DNA from: a virus
Lineage: Duplodnaviria; Caudoviricetes
DNA: 41,644 nt
Strand: one strand, 5' to 3'
IMG/VR virus record: IMGVR_UViG_3300050150_000071
Coordinates: 1-41,644 of that record
Shown piece by piece: positions 3,512 to 31,546 of the stretch. Within the stretch, counting starts at the first letter, position 1. The number at the start of each line of letters is the position of its first letter. The translations under genes were made by a program, and so were the position numbers. Below the pieces are notes generated by a model. It worked only from the letters and a program-made list of their open reading frames with translations. It was not told the origin of the DNA and searched no databases.

Positions 3512-4390
3512 ATGAGCAGCAATGACCTCCTGCTGGGCGACAAGCCTGGCATCAACATCGCCGAGACCCTGTCCCGCATCTTGCCCGACGCCAAGATCGT
3601 CAGCACCACCACCACCGATGTGCCCAGCCTGCACATCAGCCACGTGGCCGTGCCCAAGGGCTTCGACCTGCGCGAGCTGAAGCTCGACCTGGAACAGTAC
3701 CTGGACAACCCGCGCGCCACCGTGGCCACCGCCGAGCTGCAGGACTGCGACAGCTTCCTGAGCTACGTGAAGCGCCACGGCACCGACGGCACCGTGGTCT
3801 GGTGCGACTTCGACCCCGCCACCTACCGCCTGAGCTTCCGCGCCGTGTTCGACGAGCACGAGAAGGGCACCGCCGGCTGGCGCCGCCACCAGGCCACCTT
3901 CACGCCGCGCGCCAGCAACGAGTGGCAGATCTGGACGGGCCGCAACGGCAAGGCCACGCCCCAGGTGGAGTTCGCCGAGTTTCTGGAGCGTCAGGAGCTG
4001 GACATCGCGGCGCGCGAGGGCCGCCCCAGCAGCGCCGAAATGATGCAGATGGCCACCAACTTCGAGAGCAGCGGCGAGAAGCGCCTGCGCAGCTCCAGCC
4101 GCCTGCAGGACGGCAGCGTGCGCCTGGAATACATCGAGGGTGAAGACGAGAAGACCATCCAGCACATGAAGCTGTTTGAACGGTTCGTGATCGGCATCCC
4201 CGTGTTCTGGGCGGGCCCGGGCTATGTCATCGAAGCCCGCCTGAAGTACCGCACCCAGCAAGGCAAGGTCAGCTTTTGGTACGAACTGATCCGCCCCGAC
4301 CGCTCGCACGAAGCCGCGGCGAAGGAGCTGATCCAGAAGGTGCGCGAAGGCATCAACAACCTGCCCCTGCTGACCGGCGCCTGCCGCTGA
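3512..4390 (+). CDS. YfdQ/DUF2303 family protein
   Basis: SFLSYVKRH, AGWRRHQATF, QVEFAEFLE, IGIPVF...ARLKYR motifs. Confidence 0.85.
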   Translation: MSSNDLLLGDKPGINIAETLSRILPDAKIVSTTTTDVPSLHISHVAVPKGFDLRELKLDLEQYLDNPRATVATAELQDCDSFLSYVKRHGTDGTVVWCDFDPATYRLSFRAVFDEHEKGTAGWRRHQATFTPRASNEWQIWTGRNGKATPQVEFAEFLERQELDIAAREGRPSSAEMMQMATNFESSGEKRLRSSSRLQDGSVRLEYIEGEDEKTIQHMKLFERFVIGIPVFWAGPGYVIEARLKYRTQQGKVSFWYELIRPDRSHEAAAKELIQKVREGINNLPLLTGACR

Positions 4391-8167: not shown

Positions 8168-8650
8168 ATGAGCACCTCAGAAATCACCCTCCCAATCAAC
8201 GTCGAAGCCCTGACGCTGGACGCGGCCAAATCCATGCACAGCAGCCTGGCCGAGATCATCGCCAAGCTCGAAGCGGATCTGCCGATCACCTTGACCCTGC
8301 CCGCAGCCACCATCGAGCTGGCCAAGGGCGAGCGCTTCGCAGGCCTGGTGCTGAGCGAAGACGGCAAACCCAGCCACCACCTGGTGCTGTTGCCCGGCCA
8401 AGCCACTGACGTGGACTGGGACGACGCCAAGACCTGGGCCGCCAGCATCGGCGGCGAACTGCCCACCCGCCAAGAGCAGGCACTGCTGTTCGCCAACCTC
8501 AAGGGCAGCTTCGAGACCCGCGCCTACTGGTCCGGCACACCGCCCTCCAGCGGCCACGCCTGGTGTCAGTACTTCAGCAGCGGCGGCCAGGACAACTACA
8601 GCACCAGTGCTGAGTTGTGTGCCAGAGCCGTCCGCAGATTGCCCATTTGA
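8168..8650 (+). CDS. DGR target protein 2 (DUF1566/CLec-like, with N-terminal extension)
   Basis: WDDAKTWAASIGGELPTRQEQALLF...YWSGT...AW...ARAVRR CLec-type motifs; contains VR2 at its 3' end. Confidence 0.92.
   Translation: MSTSEITLPINVEALTLDAAKSMHSSLAEIIAKLEADLPITLTLPAATIELAKGERFAGLVLSEDGKPSHHLVLLPGQATDVDWDDAKTWAASIGGELPTRQEQALLFANLKGSFETRAYWSGTPPSSGHAWCQYFSSGGQDNYSTSAELCARAVRRLPI
8537..8639 (+). repeat. DGR variable repeat VR2
   Basis: 103 bp aligning to TR with 10 mismatches at TR adenines plus one T>C at 8555. Confidence 0.97.
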
Positions 8651-8669: not shown

Positions 8670-9035
8670 ATGGCCATCCACACTGACCTGCCCATCTACC
8701 GCACCGGCGTGCAACTGATGTCGCTCGCCGTTGACGCACAGATGCACATGCCGAGGGGCATCAAGCGCAGCATGGGCGACAAGATTGCCGACCACTGCGT
8801 CGAGATGCTCAACCTCATGGCCCTGGCCAACGCCACCAAGGCAATAGAGCGTGCCGCCTACATCCGCCAGCTGCTTGCCCGCCAACGTGCGGTGCAGGTG
8901 CTGCTGCGGGTGTGCTTTGACCGCCGCGACATTTCCCTCGGCTTATGGTCGAAGGCCACGCAGCTGCTGGACAGCATCGGCAAGCAGGCCAACGGGTGGA
9001 TCAAAAAGACCACGAACACGGGGCCTGCAGCATGA
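8670..9035 (+). CDS. avd: DGR accessory variability determinant (four-helix bundle)
   Basis: 121 aa, basic, LPIYR...MPRGIKRSMGDKI...IGKQANGWIK; lies between target and TR/RT. Confidence 0.9.
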   Translation: MAIHTDLPIYRTGVQLMSLAVDAQMHMPRGIKRSMGDKIADHCVEMLNLMALANATKAIERAAYIRQLLARQRAVQVLLRVCFDRRDISLGLWSKATQLLDSIGKQANGWIKKTTNTGPAA

Positions 9036-10405
9036 CAGTCACGGCTTTCATGCCCGCGCCTATTTTGAATCTGGTCGCGCCGCTGCCTCACGAGGGCACC
9101 GCCATGTACACCACAGGTACCGCTGGCTTCGCCCAGGCCCGGCCTGGTGCAGTTTCCCAGGTGATCGGCACCAGCCTTCGCCCGGGCGATGTTGATAGCG
9201 CGCACCGACACCGCACTCCAGCGGCTACGCCTGGTATCAGAACTTCAACAACGGCAACCAGAACAACAACAACACCAGTGCTGAGTTGTGTGCCAGAGCC
9301 GTCCGCAGATCCAACCCTGTTCGAACAACTGGTGGCCGCCTATATCGACTGCCGCCGCACCAAGCGCAACAGCGCCAGCGCCCTGGCCTTTGAGGCCAAC
9401 CTGGAGCGCAACCTGTGCGACCTGCACGATCAGCTGGCCAGCGGTGCCTACCGCCCTGGCCGCTCGATCTGCTTTGTCATCACCCGCCCCAAGCCACGCG
9501 AGGTGTGGGCCGCTGAGTTCCGCGACCGCATCGTCCACCACCTGCTGTACCGCAAGATCTCGCCCCGCTTCTATGCCCGCTTCACGGCCGACAGCTGCGC
9601 CTGCATCCCGGGCCGCGGCACCCTGTACGCCGCCAAGCGCCTGGAGCACCAGGTGCGCAGCGCCACACAGAACTGGAGCCAGCCCGCCCACTACCTGAAG
9701 TGCGACCTGGCCAACTTCTTTGTGAGCATCCGCAAGACCGTGGTACTGCAGCTGCTGGCCAGGCACATCACCGAGCCCTGGTGGCTGGACCTGACCGAGC
9801 GAATCCTGATGCACGACCCGCGCCACGATGTAGAGGTGCGCGGCCGGCACGAGCTGCTGGCCCGTGTTCCGCCCCACAAGAGCCTGTTCAACGCCCCCGA
9901 TGACCAAGGCCTGCCCATCGGCAACCTGTCTTCGCAGTTCTTCGCCAACGTGCTGCTGGATGTGCTGGACCAGCACGCCAAACACCAGCTGCGCGCGCCC
10001 CACTATGTGCGCTACGTCGATGACTTCGTGCTGGTGCACCAGTCGCCCCAATGGCTGAACCGGGCCCTGGCCAACATCACCGCCATGCTGCCCGCCCGCC
10101 TGGGCCTGCAACTGAACCCCAGCAAGACCATCCTGCAGCGTGTGGACAACGGCATCGACTTCGTGGGCCACGTCATCAAGCCATGGCGCCGCACCACCAG
10201 GCCGCGCACCCTGCGCACCGCGCTGCGCCGCCTGGCCGACATGCCCGCTGAAGACGTCTTCGCCGCCGGCAACAGCTACCTGGGCCTGGTCCGCCAAGCC
10301 TCTCACAGCCACATTGAGCAAGTGCAGATTGCCCAGGCCTTGCTGGCCCGTGGTCACTGCGTCAACGCACCCTTCACCAAAGCCTTTCAGAAAGCCCGCA
10401 CATGA
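9032..10405 (+). CDS. DGR reverse transcriptase (start uncertain: 9032 or a GTG near 9278-9290)
   Basis: KPREVWAAEFRDRIVHH, LKCDLANFF, GLPIGNLSSQFFAN (DGR-type SQ), YVRYVDDFV and GIDFVG motifs. Confidence 0.96.
   Translation: MTVTAFMPAPILNLVAPLPHEGTAMYTTGTAGFAQARPGAVSQVIGTSLRPGDVDSAHRHRTPAATPGIRTSTTATRTTTTPVLSCVPEPSADPTLFEQLVAAYIDCRRTKRNSASALAFEANLERNLCDLHDQLASGAYRPGRSICFVITRPKPREVWAAEFRDRIVHHLLYRKISPRFYARFTADSCACIPGRGTLYAAKRLEHQVRSATQNWSQPAHYLKCDLANFFVSIRKTVVLQLLARHITEPWWLDLTERILMHDPRHDVEVRGRHELLARVPPHKSLFNAPDDQGLPIGNLSSQFFANVLLDVLDQHAKHQLRAPHYVRYVDDFVLVHQSPQWLNRALANITAMLPARLGLQLNPSKTILQRVDNGIDFVGHVIKPWRRTTRPRTLRTALRRLADMPAEDVFAAGNSYLGLVRQASHSHIEQVQIAQALLARGHCVNAPFTKAFQKART
9208..9310 (+). 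repeat. DGR template repeat (TR)
   Basis: AAC-rich (8 AAC codons in the target frame) copy of VR1/VR2, lying between avd and the RT core. Confidence 0.97.
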
Positions 10406-11232
10406 GCAAACCCCTTGTCATCTATCACGCCAACTGCGCCGATGGCTTCAGCGCCGCCTGGTGCTTTTGGCACAAGTACGGCCAGGCCTGCGACTTTCAC
10501 CCCGGGGTGTACGGCCAGGAGCCGCCCGATGTCACTGGCCGCTGCGTGTACCTGGTCGACTTCAGCTACAAGCGTGACACCGTGCTGAAGATGCTGGAGA
10601 CCGCCGCGCACGTGGTGCTGATCGACCACCACAAGACGGCCATCGATGACCTGGCCAGCGTGACCGGCGACAAGTTCAGCACGCTGACTGATCTGAACCG
10701 CAGCGGCGCCACACTGGCCTGGGACTTCCTCTTTCCTGGCCAGCCGCGCCCGCTGCTGCTGGGCCACGTCGAAGACCGCGACCTGTGGCGCTTCAAGTTG
10801 CCCGGCACCAGAGAGATTCAGGCCTTCGTGTTCTCGCACCGCTACACCTTCGAGCAATGGGACCAGCTCATGGCCGCCGACCAGGTGCAACTGCTGCAAA
10901 TGACCGCCGCCGGCGCCGCCATCGAGCGCAAGCACCACAAGGACGTGGCCGAGCTGGTGGGCGTGTGCAAGCGCCGCATGGTCATCGGCGGTCATGACGT
11001 GCCAGTGGCCAGCCTGCCCTACACCCTGACCAGCGATGCCGGCGCGCTGATGGCCCAGGGTGAGCCCTTCGCCGCCTGCTACTGGGACACGACAGAGCAC
11101 CGCAACTTCAGCCTGCGCGCCACGGATGAAGGCCTTGATGTGGCCGACATCGCGGCGCAGTACGGCGGCGGAGGCCATGCCAAGGCCTCGGGCTTCCGGG
11201 TGACCCGGGACCATGAACTTGCCAAGTGCTGA
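10402..11232 (+). CDS. DHH/DHHA1 family phosphoesterase
   Basis: YHANCADG, VDFS, IDHH, DRDLW and GGGGHAKASGF motifs. Confidence 0.9.
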   Translation: MSKPLVIYHANCADGFSAAWCFWHKYGQACDFHPGVYGQEPPDVTGRCVYLVDFSYKRDTVLKMLETAAHVVLIDHHKTAIDDLASVTGDKFSTLTDLNRSGATLAWDFLFPGQPRPLLLGHVEDRDLWRFKLPGTREIQAFVFSHRYTFEQWDQLMAADQVQLLQMTAAGAAIERKHHKDVAELVGVCKRRMVIGGHDVPVASLPYTLTSDAGALMAQGEPFAACYWDTTEHRNFSLRATDEGLDVADIAAQYGGGGHAKASGFRVTRDHELAKC

Positions 11233-11257
11233 GGTATCCATGACACACGAAGCCGAT

Positions 11258-11281
11258 CATTTTCCTGACGTCAGGAAAATG
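11258..11281. repeat. perfect 24-bp palindrome
   Basis: CATTTTCCTGAC|GTCAGGAAAATG. Confidence 0.9.
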
Positions 11282-11330
11282 GTGGGCGCTTTGAAACCGA
11301 GCCGCGCAGAGCGTGGCGGAAAAAGGAGAG

Positions 11331-11636
11331 ATGGAAATGGTCAATCTGCAAAAGCACCTGAACCTGCTGGGCATGCGCGTCGAGGATCGAGTTACCGGCT
11401 TTAAAGGCGTAGTGGCCACAGTTGGTTTTGACTTGTATGGCTGCATCCAAGCCATTGTCAATCCAGGCGCTGACAATGAAGGCAAGCTGCGCGACAGCCA
11501 ATGGTTCGATGTCAACCGCTTGCTCGTGGTGAGCGATGAGCCCGTCATGCCGCGCCCGGAATTTGAGTGGACACCGCAGGTGATCGCAGAAGCAGGCAAG
11601 GGGCCTGGCGAGCGACCCGCGTTCAACAAGGCCTAA
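11331..11636 (+). CDS. conserved phage hypothetical protein
   Basis: AGGAG RBS; LGMRVEDRVTGFKGVV...YGC...WFDVNRL pattern; its stop TAA lies inside GCCTAAC. Confidence 0.75.
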   Translation: MEMVNLQKHLNLLGMRVEDRVTGFKGVVATVGFDLYGCIQAIVNPGADNEGKLRDSQWFDVNRLLVVSDEPVMPRPEFEWTPQVIAEAGKGPGERPAFNKA

Positions 11637-11697
11637 CCCAAAAGTTAACCGGCGGGCGTGCGAAGCATGCACGTCCGCGTTGAACGAAGAGTTAGGC
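11631..11697 (-). other. attC recombination site 1 (67 bp)
   Basis: Minus strand: GCCTAAC-TCTTC-GTTCAAC...GGTTAAC-TTTTGG-GTTAGGC, imperfect hairpin with an extra C in L''. Confidence 0.85.
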
Positions 11698-11806
11698 CTG
11701 GTGGCAGATGCCCAGGGCGCAGCGCGCCACACGAAGCCGGGGCCACAGGCCCGGGCGCTTTGACAACCGAGCAGGGCCGCAGGCCTTGCGGATAGGAGCG
11801 ATACCA

Positions 11807-12211
11807 ATGATCAAACCCGATAAATTCGGCATCTTGCTGGCAAAGCCACCGGGCGTAGAAAAAGGTAAATGGTTTAGCGGGCTGCTTGCCTACATGCTCA
11901 CAGGTCCATGGTGGTGGCCATATGAAATGCAACCCAAGGGTTCCCGAAACTCTATGGTTGCAGCCAAGGGCAATGATCTGTACACGGATCTGATGGAAAT
12001 GCAGGAAGCTGGCTTGGTGGTTTTAGCGCAAACCGAAGGCGATCGGTCGTTGTTCATTGCAACCGAAAAGTCCATGGAAGCAATGCAGCTTGACAAAACA
12101 GAGCGGCTGCGCGCGATTAAGACAGCACGGCTCACGAAAGGCGGCAGATTGGTGTATCCGAAATCACTCAGGTCGTACAGCAAAGACCCATGGCCACCAC
12201 ACGAGGCCTAA
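11807..12211 (+). CDS. hypothetical cassette protein
   Basis: AGGAG RBS; more AT-rich than the flanks; stop TAA inside GCCTAAC. Confidence 0.7.
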   Translation: MIKPDKFGILLAKPPGVEKGKWFSGLLAYMLTGPWWWPYEMQPKGSRNSMVAAKGNDLYTDLMEMQEAGLVVLAQTEGDRSLFIATEKSMEAMQLDKTERLRAIKTARLTKGGRLVYPKSLRSYSKDPWPPHEA

Positions 12212-12289
12212 CCCTTGAATTAAGCGGCCCGCGTTTTGCGGCGCCAGATGCGCGGACTTGCAAGGGTCCGCTTGAATGATGAGTTAGGC
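12206..12289 (-). other. attC recombination site 2 (84 bp)
   Basis: Minus strand: GCCTAAC-TCATC-ATTCAAGC-GG-A-CCC...GGG-CC-GCTTAAT-TCAAGG-GTTAGGC; both canonical extrahelical positions are present. Confidence 0.9.
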
Positions 12290-12316
12290 CTGTGGCCACA
12301 CCGTTGAGAGGAACCC

Positions 12317-12802
12317 ATGGAACTGCACCTGAAGCCCTGCCCGCACTGCGGCAGTGAAGCGAAGTTCAACACCATCACCGATGACCCGGAGGGCTCCAAC
12401 TACCAAGGCAACTACATCGCGTGCGAGGCCTGCAGCGCCACCACGCAACTGATGTTTTCGACTGGCGAGGACTGCCGCCCGATTTTGGCTGAGCTTTGGA
12501 ATGCCCGGCATGGGCCCATGAACAAGGCGCCTGACAGCATGCTGAAGTTCAGCGGCACCCCCACCGAGATTGGCGGGCAGATCTGGGAACGCATGTGCCT
12601 GCCCGCCGTGGGCAAGGTGAGCCGCGACCTGACGCCCATTGCCACGGCCCAGATCTATGGCGGATTCACCATGGCCGCATGGGGCGCGATGGTGGCCGAC
12701 TTCGGGCACGTGCAGGCGGTCGATTTCGCGCGGCAGATGCTGGCCCGCTTTGAGAAAGAGGCACCCACGCTGACCGAGGACGGCACGACTGGCGCGCATT
12801 GA
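12317..12802 (+). CDS. Lar-family (restriction alleviation) zinc-binding domain protein
   Basis: LKPCPHCGSEA...IACEACSA...LWNAR signature with an extra C-terminal domain. Confidence 0.75.
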   Translation: MELHLKPCPHCGSEAKFNTITDDPEGSNYQGNYIACEACSATTQLMFSTGEDCRPILAELWNARHGPMNKAPDSMLKFSGTPTEIGGQIWERMCLPAVGKVSRDLTPIATAQIYGGFTMAAWGAMVADFGHVQAVDFARQMLARFEKEAPTLTEDGTTGAH

Positions 12803-12804
12803 GG

Positions 12805-12871
12805 GCCTAACCCCTGAGTTCAGCGCGCGGCAGGCCAACGGCCTGACGTCCGCTGCAACGACGAGTTAGGC
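12805..12871 (-). other. attC recombination site 3 (67 bp)
   Basis: Minus strand: GCCTAAC-TCGTC-GTTGCAGC-GGACG...GCTGAAC-TCAGGG-GTTAGGC. Confidence 0.88.
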
Positions 12872-12922
12872 CTGCCAGCCACACACCCAGGGCGCAGCGA
12901 GAACACAGCCGACCGAGGACCC

Positions 12923-13564
12923 ATGACGAAAAGCAAAGGCATCAAACGGCCTGATTGGAAGTGGACTGCCGAGCAGGATCAACTACTCATGGCGACTTAT
13001 GAAAGCACTCGAAAGTCAGAACTCGCAAAAGCCATCGGCTGCACAGAAGGCCAGCTCATGAATCGCGGGAAAAAGCTGGGGCTGTCAACGCCGCCAGGCG
13101 TGTTCCTGGTGGGCTCCAAGAAGGGGGCAGAGACCCTTGTAAAGCTGAAAGAACGCATGCGCAAGGCAGCAGATGAAGGCCGGATCAAACCCCCAATGCG
13201 ACACACCATAGACGCCGGCCTTGCTGCAGCACAAAAGCCAGAAGCGCGCGCGAGACGAGCCGCCAAAGCTGCGGACACGATGCGAGGAATTCCCCAGCGT
13301 ATGGACGGGCTGTCAGCAGCCGCAGAGCACAACGCCCGAGCAAAGACTTACACGGTACTGGACCCTCATGGCACCGCCTTCACATTCAAAAATCTCAATC
13401 ACTTTGTGCGCGAGAACCCACACCTTTTCCTCCCTGAGGACACCGTGTGGACCGGGCCAGAAAACAATCCATGGTGCAGAGCACAGCGCGGCCTAGGGAG
13501 CCTTTTCAAGACGCGACCGCGCTTCACATGGAAGGGATGGTCCGCAGTAAACAAGAGGGCCTAA
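12923..13564 (+). CDS. hypothetical DNA-binding protein (cassette gene)
   Basis: WTAEQDQLL...ELAKAIG...RGKKLGL HTH-like N-terminus; basic; stop TAA inside GCCTAAC. Confidence 0.65.
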   Translation: MTKSKGIKRPDWKWTAEQDQLLMATYESTRKSELAKAIGCTEGQLMNRGKKLGLSTPPGVFLVGSKKGAETLVKLKERMRKAADEGRIKPPMRHTIDAGLAAAQKPEARARRAAKAADTMRGIPQRMDGLSAAAEHNARAKTYTVLDPHGTAFTFKNLNHFVRENPHLFLPEDTVWTGPENNPWCRAQRGLGSLFKTRPRFTWKGWSAVNKRA

Positions 13565-13626
13565 CCCGAGATAGGCGTCGTGGACGACGCACTATCCGGA
13601 CAAAAGCGTCAAATCTGTCGCATAAC
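13559..13626 (-). other. attI-like site heading the cassette array
   Basis: Minus strand: GTTATGC...GCCTATC-TCGG-GTTAGGC, i.e. a core plus degenerate inverted core and an upstream direct repeat, with no attC outer arm. Confidence 0.55.
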
Positions 13627-13643
13627 CTGGGATTCCCGGCCTT

Positions 13644-14960
13644 TTACGACAGCCCGCCCACCGCAGGCTTTTCCTTTTCTGCCTCCGTCAGATCCTCCAG
13701 CTTCTGGCTCAGCTTGGTGAGCCAGGTCAGCCGCTCAGCATCGTAGGCATGCAGGTTGTAGACCCCCTCAATACCCGGCTGCACGTGCCCCAGCAGCGCC
13801 TCACCCACATCAGGCGGGCACCCCAGCGCCGTCACCAGCGTTCGGCAAGATCGGCGCAGATCATGCGGCGCCCAATGTGTCACCGGCAGGCGATGGCGGA
13901 TGTACTCTGGCCTGGTCTCGCAGTAGGGCATGCGCATCCACACCGCCACACCAATGGATTTCTGCTCGACGTGCCCCAGCTCGGTGTGCGAGTGGAACAG
14001 GTGGCCATCAGGGCCAGGAGCCTGCAGCCGCCGGCGCACCACCTCAGCGGCACGGCCAACCAGCGGCACACGCAAGTCCGTCGCCCCCTCGACATGGGCG
14101 TTCTTTGTTTTGGCCTTGGGGATCTGCCACCAAAGCCCAGCAGCGCCCTCATCCCTGATTTCCGTGGCCTGCATGGCCACGATCTCAGATCCACGGCACA
14201 TGGTCCACAGGTACAGCGTCAGCTGATCTTCGTTGTTGCGCGGGAAATTGGGAAGCCAGGCCACCAGCTGCCCCAGCTCAGCAGCCGACAACGCACGCTT
14301 GAGCGGAGAAGCCTTGCCCTGAATGGTCTTGCCCTTGGTGCGCAGCTTGCCGCGCAGGATCTGGCGCCACCAGTTGGGCGTGTCTTCGGGAACCTTGCCC
14401 GAGTCGATACCATAGTCCCAGGCCGCGCCAAGTTCGGCACGCAACTTCCTGGCCTGGACAGGGATGCCAGCATGCGCCTCGATCGCGGCATAGGCCACGG
14501 CCCGCGTGACGCGCCTGGGGCTCAACGCAGCCAGATCGCCCAGCATGGTGTCAAACATCCGCCCCACCTCGGTCCGGCCCTTGGCTTTGCGCCTGGTTTT
14601 CAGGCTGCCCACATAGTCGGCGCAGAGGTGGCGCACCAGGTAGGCCGCATCCTTCGCTTCGGCCTTGGCCCTCTCTTGGGCGACCAGTTCAGCATGCCGG
14701 CCGGCGCGCTTCTCAGCGGCCGGGTCCTGACCACGGTCGCGCATGCTGCGTAGCTTTTCCCACTCCACCCATGCGGCCTGATACCCCAGCGCTGGCCAGC
14801 GGCCAATTCTGATCTGGCGCATCCGCCCATCGACCGGCGACCGGTACCGGTAGATCCAGGCCTTGGCCGACTGCGAGGCCTCCAGCCTCAGGCCGGGCGC
14901 CTCTTCGATGGTAAGGTGCTCCCCCGGCGCGAGCAGCTTGGCTGTGCGTGCATCAAACAT
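13644..14960 (-). CDS. int: phage tyrosine integrase (P4-like, N-terminal arm-binding domain)
   Basis: PGLRL...WIYRY...IGRWPAL arm-binding domain; catalytic R (CRGSE), K, HDLRR, LGH and Y. Confidence 0.95.
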   Translation of the reverse strand: MFDARTAKLLAPGEHLTIEEAPGLRLEASQSAKAWIYRYRSPVDGRMRQIRIGRWPALGYQAAWVEWEKLRSMRDRGQDPAAEKRAGRHAELVAQERAKAEAKDAAYLVRHLCADYVGSLKTRRKAKGRTEVGRMFDTMLGDLAALSPRRVTRAVAYAAIEAHAGIPVQARKLRAELGAAWDYGIDSGKVPEDTPNWWRQILRGKLRTKGKTIQGKASPLKRALSAAELGQLVAWLPNFPRNNEDQLTLYLWTMCRGSEIVAMQATEIRDEGAAGLWWQIPKAKTKNAHVEGATDLRVPLVGRAAEVVRRRLQAPGPDGHLFHSHTELGHVEQKSIGVAVWMRMPYCETRPEYIRHRLPVTHWAPHDLRRSCRTLVTALGCPPDVGEALLGHVQPGIEGVYNLHAYDAERLTWLTKLSQKLEDLTEAEKEKPAVGGLS

Positions 14961-27478: not shown

Positions 27479-27502
27479 GAGCAGACACTGTGCCGAGCGG
27501 GT

Positions 27503-27533
27503 TGTCTCACGTCACCGGAATGAGTGAGACAGA
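27503..27533 (-). promoter_or_regulatory. late promoter/activator site, copy 1
   Basis: TGTCTCAC-N13-GTGAGACA inverted repeat, 30/31 identical to 31516..31546, 25 bp upstream of the capsid ATG. Confidence 0.75.
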
Positions 27534-31491: not shown

Positions 31492-31515
31492 AGGCCCCGA
31501 AAATATCGGGCGGCG

Positions 31516-31546
31516 TGTCTCACGTCACCGGAATGGGTGAGACAGA
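31516..31546 (-). promoter_or_regulatory. late promoter/activator site, copy 2
   Basis: Same 31-bp element, 25 bp upstream of the gpW ATG. Confidence 0.75.

Follow-up and report, generated by a model that had tools for sequence, protein, structure and literature searches.

CALINs have been defined as groups of at least two neighbouring attC sites with no intI gene nearby (Cury et al. 2016, PMC4889954). In phages, 17 such clusters have been reported, and five of six sites were recombined with attI1 by IntI1 (Qi et al. 2023, PMC9892861). In the usual view, integrons are devices of bacteria, and their cassettes must face away from attI for expression; defence genes have been described in integron cassettes (bioRxiv 10.1101/2024.07.02.601686). 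The array analyzed here lies in a phage record, is accompanied by no intI gene and carries all its genes in the reverse polarity.

attC sites, cassettes and leader of the phage array

The whole stretch of DNA analyzed here (the window) is a viral record of 41,644 bases, which is classed as linear and 90% complete and which PHROGs annotation assigns to a temperate tailed phage. Early-type genes occupy the plus strand up to position 13564, and integrase, lysis, tail and head genes follow on the minus strand (PHROGs). The attC array forms the distal end of the plus-strand gene run and is convergent with the integrase gene (13644..14960, minus strand). According to its domain matches, this integrase combines an Arm-binding domain with a tyrosine recombinase domain and is not an IntI; its end is located 80 nt from the terminal site of the array, a predicted attI. 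When the whole record (linear, 90% complete) was searched for IntI with TIGR02249, no match was obtained, and this is in line with the absence of an encoded IntI claimed in the preliminary description. A blastn comparison of the array with cultured phages yielded no match. For attC1 plus leader we only obtained a chance-level match, and for attC2 only chance-level plasmid matches. Elsewhere, the window carries a diversity-generating retroelement (avd, RT-15 RNA at 9019-9210, reverse transcriptase; 8670-10405). Its template repeat probably lies near 9197-9318, and two probable variable repeats (157-278 and 8526-8647) are located inside early-region genes. A 40-nt direct repeat (90%) at 27494-27533 and 31507-31546 is located just upstream of two minus-strand head genes and is possibly a late promoter or operator.

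On the minus strand, three elements read GCCTAAC, 5 nt, an 8-nt L'' box with an extra base, a stem, a 7-nt L' box, 6 nt and GTTAGGC. These are attC1 (11631..11697, 67 bp), attC2 (12206..12289, 84 bp) and attC3 (12805..12871, 67 bp), each with its top strand on minus. Read on the plus strand, the order is R', 6 nt, L', loop, L'' with the extra base, 5 nt and R'', and this strand is the bottom strand of attC as defined by Nivina et al. (2016, PMC5027507). The elements agree with the attC definition in the accessible part of that paper (R'' RYYYAAC, R' GTTRRRY, L boxes, spacers of 5 and 6 nt, 57-141 bp). In the minus-strand register, the L boxes pair at 6, 7 and 7 of 7 positions, but in the opposite register at 3, 4 and 4. 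The extrahelical bases that mark the bottom strand of attC, the L'' base and a conserved T six pairs from it, are present, with a 6-nt stretch ahead of the L'' extra base, matching the published pattern (PMC5027507). As deviations we observed one extra bulge in attC1 and, in attC3, a C instead of the usual G plus one mismatch.

A home-made attC scanner detected three sites in the window, and 20 shuffled sequences gave three in total (0-1 each). We also built a covariance model from 46 aligned bacterial sites with a hand-set structure. For attC1, attC2 and attC3, the minus-strand scores were 46.4, 57.4 and 49.6 bits (plus-strand scores 12.8, 19.2 and 13.2 bits), and the best match elsewhere in the window reached 17.8 bits. 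The training sites were taken from 67 sites that did not match the search pattern. Since the pattern by which the training loci had first been located was itself derived from the sites of the window, and since only part of the training genomes were checked for IntI (present in four of five), this model is weaker than that of IntegronFinder. Pairing, shuffles and model bear out the three attC-architecture elements of 67-84 bp that the preliminary description had placed on the minus strand, including the three minus-strand model hits it predicted (46-57 bits, with our model instead of IntegronFinder's). Its claim that their centres are unrelated holds for the loops, but the stems share a GTCCGC-like word. 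The feature is real and integron-like but lacks an integrase of its own; with three sites inside 1.3 kb and no intI nearby, it qualifies as a CALIN, not as a complete integron. A complete integron has an intI gene, an attI at one end of the array and a Pc driving cassettes away from attI. Here, intI is missing, the genes face the predicted attI, and a scan of 11000-13900 for sigma-70-like promoters, which is a weak test, found none.

The cassette limits proposed earlier proved correct. Cassette 1 (11637..12211, plus strand) consists of the attC1 hairpin, a leader and a gene for a 134-aa protein with no assigned function (11807-12211). Cassette 2 (12212..12810, plus strand) comprises the attC2 hairpin and a 161-aa gene (12317-12802), the product of which carries an N-terminal Lar restriction-alleviation domain (PF14354 at 39.6 bits, above cut-off; TIGR03655 below cut-off; phrog_599). 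Cassette 3 (12811..13564, plus strand) contains the attC3 hairpin, a short leader and the gene for a putative DNA-binding protein of 213 aa (12923-13564). This protein matched phrog_323 weakly, its NUMOD-like leads stayed below 0.9, and its 22 matches, itself included, had no assigned function. Since cassette 3 adjoins attI, it is predicted to be the newest. The flanking gene to the left (11337..11636, plus strand; phrog_37639, function unassigned) stops within the R' box of attC1. It is preceded by a partial cassette-type leader (11281-11333) and no attC, and may thus represent either a flank that stays in place or the eroded remains of a cassette; a protein resembling its product was also seen by eye ahead of an attC in loci L049 and L090. 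As had been described, each of the four genes, all on the plus strand, has a purine-rich RBS-like word, and three of the four cores supply a TAA stop; the Lar gene ends with TGA at 12802. A near twin of the window was the only record to match the cassette 1 protein; it also matched the cassette 2 protein, the C-terminal half of which had a further match in L252. In metagenome_contigs, we found neither the cassette 3 protein nor the end of cassette 2. When 161 phage-array proteins were compared with 157 bacterial loci by tblastn, no match was found, a sample too small for the claim of a separate pool.

About 100 nt separate attC from the start codon and form a structured leader. In cassette 1 (11698..11809, plus strand) it folds into two hairpins and ends in the RBS. 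It is common to many phage cassettes (copies in L048, L050, L051, L057, L257, L280, L285, L021, L022 and L282), and a short form is found at 12872-12922. In an alignment of 13 sequences, 96% of the cells were paired and seven of the 14 pairs had changed on both sides. The covariation score was reached by none of 500 shuffles, a contrast inflated by the kinship of the sequences. Rfam holds no family for the leader or for the attC sites. We speculate that the leader is a processing or antitermination signal. On this line, the hairpins themselves might be kept as RNA signals of the early transcript (processing, termination, antitermination), with their attC likeness a leftover. The bottom strand is indeed the mRNA strand and folds stably, and the adjoining leader covaries. 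We consider this reading very improbable, since an RNA role leaves attI and the crossover-precise junctions described below unexplained; moreover, the hairpins have no U-tail, and terminator-like matches are at chance level (3 vs. 3.8). An RNA role of the leader may exist alongside recombination of the sites by a host IntI.

Gene polarity in phage and bacterial arrays

In a canonical cassette, the gene lies on the top strand and attC follows it. In the window, the three cassette genes lie on the bottom strand behind the hairpin. As the top strands of attC are minus and all genes are plus, the polarity is inverted, just as had been claimed. We surveyed gene polarity with one search pattern, which gave 32 viral loci and at least 127 genome loci. 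Of the viral loci, seven were left out because they were duplicates or the twin of the window; of the genome loci, 13 were left out on these grounds and 47 for lack of flanks. A further six viral and seven genome loci had no scanner-passing site. By majority polarity, 17 viral contigs were inverted, one was canonical and one undecided, and the corresponding numbers for bacterial genomes were 2, 48 and 6. Thus, inversion was found in 17 of 18 decidable viral contigs vs. 2 of 50 genomes (Fisher p 7e-13, alike at two stricter gene lengths), the calls being made by a home-made gene caller on contigs that are not fully independent. Counted per site, 62 of 66 viral but 35 of 158 bacterial sites were inverted. 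We also inspected 80 loci that had been picked by a DHH gene irrespective of attC. Twelve of them had sites; the bottom strand was on the DHH strand in nine and on the opposite strand in one, and two were palindromic.

Three of the 17 published phage CALINs were rechecked (L332, NC_029094; L331, MW202573; L330, NC_019930). PH101 was inverted at four of four sites and ctTUS972 likewise at four of four. TJE1 showed canonical polarity, which counts against the host-IntI explanation favoured below. PH101_attC1, one of the sites recombined by IntI1 (PMC9892861), is inverted relative to its own genes. A literature search, with most subscription journals outside its coverage, found no paper on systematic inversion in phages.

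Some phage arrays are long, with up to about nine attC sites (L057 3800-12400, L059, L069, L090, L009). Here, ORFs run through attC and hairpin sequence is read as protein ends. In L090, the DHH phosphoesterase gene itself is located between attC sites. One phage array, that of L001, includes in antisense direction a cassette of canonical polarity (2080-2563), the ORF of which is hydrophobic and AT-richer, and this fits occasional traffic from host integrons.

If the phage had captured a host integron segment once and carried it since as inert cargo, host-like attI and attC and the one canonical cassette in L001 would be expected. The cargo is of phage type (Lar), however, its polarity is opposite to that of host arrays, and content differs between near-identical phages. 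For these reasons we regard single capture as the least likely of the explanations weighed here.

Predicted attI and exchange of content among relatives

The fourth core reads GCCTAA-N6-ATAGGC on the plus strand (13559..13576, oriented on minus), with two inverted boxes round a 6-bp centre, and this motif has a single match in the window. On strong sequence and comparative grounds we predict a host-type attI simple site. A predicted accessory repeat, GCATAACCTGG on the plus strand (13620..13630, oriented on minus), is located 61 nt from the core; the same repeat follows the core in the phage loci L282 and L286 and is present in the attI region of the host integron L303. By eye, nine of the 13 listed lone cores at gene ends beside phage attC arrays were of this form, and a pattern search found further ones beside phage arrays. 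For host integrons, we surveyed 34 intI loci, 28 of which had enough upstream DNA. The 6-bp form occurred upstream of 8 of the 28 usable intI genes, 147-340 nt away (600 nt examined), and the 7-bp form beside two; L300 is attI1-like with a 7-bp centre. The motif was found in none of the 34 intI gene bodies. Its absence from 20 of the 28 host integrons speaks against the site being an attI used by host IntI. The preliminary description had counted this site among four cores, three of which supply a TAA stop. Instead of a stray core, the site is better described as a predicted attI. Two other assignments were dropped: a broken attC with a small hairpin (9 bits in the model, and the sequence fits the attI motif) and the phage attP (similar sites end arrays beside unrelated integrases). 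With a host-type attI in the array and attC normally oriented to it, only the genes would be reversed.

When the content of related phages was compared, as had been proposed earlier, changes were found at the AA|C crossover (G|TT on the other strand) in the sets with a common attI, in the L021 duplicate and in L048; the window's own cassettes show single ends only. Up to the attC3 crossover, L048 is identical to the window for all of 8409 nt, and the identity extends 4 nt past it. Beyond this point it has a different attC, different genes and a different attI, and cassette 3 is replaced; L036, which derives from the sample of L048, agrees with the window instead. As the difference extends through the other attI, more than a single cassette has changed, an outcome that homologous recombination could produce. 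L048, L280 and L285 have one attI in common but three different first cassettes (identity of 93-98% in the 60 nt on the right side and of 30-32% on the left side outside the core). L282 and L286 also combine a common attI with different first cassettes (95% right, 27% left). In these sets, identity begins at the 7-9 nt core. L021 carries one 318-bp cassette in two copies, one of them beside attI, and both ends are at AA|C. Duplication at attI is the expected trace of excision and reinsertion. L021 and L022 share a cassette, which is followed by different neighbours.

More detailed comparison of the two L021 copies (1404-1721 and 4022-4339, both on the reverse complement) showed identical 274-nt bodies and 43-nt attC interiors that are exact reverse complements of each other (42.9 bits each, on opposite strands). 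In L016 (2499-2558), one attC is flipped compared with the remainder of its array. A flip of the attC interior between the perfectly complementary R boxes converts the polarity and is a possible origin of reversed cassettes; two contigs provide the evidence for the flipped attC, which might also have arisen by misassembly.

In eight leaf-litter runs, contigs, which may derive from other phages, join other DNA at 11629-11630, 12205, 12213 and 12811-12812. They do so at attC or leader ends as well (11698, 11706, 11798-11802, 12287 and 12297), and among the listed junctions such joins are as many as the crossover joins, a point against IntI as the sole agent. No cassette-skipping or circle-closing joints were seen in the eight DNA runs covered, out of 24, which is uninformative because contigs drop rare forms; the same eight runs contained one unrelated skip, inside int. 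In run X6, cassette 2 in a contig joined at 12811 is followed by a simple site resembling attI and then by a cassette leader that lacks the hairpin, possibly an attI-attC hybrid junction.

Part of this pattern would also be expected if the integron-derived sites were by now only dispersed repeats, between which early genes are exchanged through homology by the recombination proteins of the phage, with IntI irrelevant. Modules of attC plus leader (about 160 nt, 80-89% alike among phages) stand ahead of different genes, and near-identical copies of attC1 precede three different genes (L021 and L022 included), an arrangement that IntI excision alone does not explain. Junctions at leader ends and the inclusion of attI in the L048 swap point in the same direction. 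We nevertheless consider this explanation unlikely. Loops of neighbouring sites are unrelated, yet extra bases, spacers and strand are kept. Each array uses one strand, the only discordant site being that of L016 among 51 loci and that of L021 among 16. Finally, the predicted attI is conserved together with its accessory repeats, and the L021 duplicate has both ends at AA|C.

Probable source of the recombinase and comparison with known systems

The preliminary description had suggested looking for intI in the host. In the likely host family (that of G004, the Paracidovorax genome of L185), 126 of the 301 genomes searched encode an IntI above cut-off. Among 31 array-bearing viral records, eight of them at least 90% complete, none did. 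Relatives of the phage integrase were found in 11 of the 301 genomes (at most 59% identity); only five of the 11 have IntI, which counts against the host-IntI reading. Another tyrosine recombinase might act on the sites, either host XerC/D or this adjacent integrase, whose end is 80 nt away from the terminal site. The centre of this site has 6 bp (7 bp at the attI1-like locus L300) and is dif-like. Folded single strands can be recombined by XerC/D (PMC5027507). However, none of 31 loci with more distant relatives of the integrase (21 elements, some loci incomplete) had a scanner-passing array, and the arrays of L011 and L090 end beside apparent serine recombinases, as judged from N-terminal sequence. 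Moreover, the 6-bp attI type is commoner beside true intI genes of the family (8 vs. 2). Taken together, these data make a recombinase other than IntI quite improbable.

The proposal that the phage uses a host IntI in trans is supported by the sites passing the attC model, by content that shifts at the crossover and by the frequency of IntI in the likely host family. We consider it likely, on this sequence evidence, that cassettes are added by host IntI where the early operon ends, distal to its promoter. Prophage induction shares the SOS trigger. IntI is under SOS control (PMC8946536), and its expression, probably SOS-driven during prophage induction, would lead to recombination of the folded plus strand, i.e. 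the bottom strand of attC. Recombination of attC with attC would excise a unit of hairpin, leader and gene, and recombination of attC with attI would insert it at 13564|13565. With attI placed where the early operon ends and not behind a Pc, the early transcript would read only genes antisense to the attC top strand. Selection would therefore keep a mirror-image pool of cassettes, and the newest cassette would be the last of the operon. By a second, probably homologous route, genes may be swapped behind common attC-plus-leader modules.

The reading with all its parts jointly, that of a mirror-image integron, is possible, and we put it forward tentatively. It would combine an attI of host type distal in the early operon, a reversed cassette pool confined to phages and a hijacked host IntI. 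Reversal would act as a firewall. Cassettes of the host, many of them anti-phage genes, would end up antisense in the phage and not be expressed, and a host Pc would leave phage cassettes silent. New reversed cassettes might arise via a flipped attC interior, as perhaps caught in L021, and genes would also be loaded behind the common module of attC and structured leader. A widespread class of phages with reversed polarity, an attI and traces of continuing turnover would mean that phages shuffle early genes, e.g. anti-restriction factors, by means of host IntI, and thus have a site-specific route to mosaicism. The data also bear on cassette genesis, as near-identical attC stand ahead of different genes with a conserved leader between them and one cassette occurs with attC in both orientations.

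The earlier claim of an undescribed system was too strong, since phage attC clusters recombined by IntI1 have been published (PMC9892861). What had not been described before is that the inversion is systematic, that there is a predicted attI and that the cargo consists of phage genes. Like the window, the phage CALINs of Qi et al. (2023, PMC9892861) have at least two attC sites in a phage and no intI. In its accessible parts, that paper makes no remark on inversion of genes relative to attC and describes the arrays of TJE1 and PH101 as typical. Class 1 and Shewanella prophage cases are the only ones for which it reports attI, whereas the window has a predicted attI, and it views the arrays as spreading bacterial cassettes, with no turnover among related phages shown in those parts.

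Genes that face attI, as in the window, also result from top-strand recombination (Nivina et al. 2016, PMC5027507). In the case described in the accessible part of that work, the whole cassette including attC is reversed, whereas in the window attC is normal to attI and the gene alone is reversed. In 'reverse' integrons, the integrase gene points at the array, as does the phage int in the window; there, however, a true IntI gene is inverted and here the cassette genes (PMC4889954, accessible part). The sedentary chromosomal integrons of Burkholderiales (L258-L261, L300-L329) share with the window the attC anatomy and a similar sequence family, the 6-bp attI motif, an accessory repeat and the predicted entry of cassettes at attI. 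In contrast to these integrons, the window has no intI and no Pc found at attI (11000-13900 scan), its genes are antisense to the top strand with the hairpin ahead of the gene, and its cargo is that of the phage early region.
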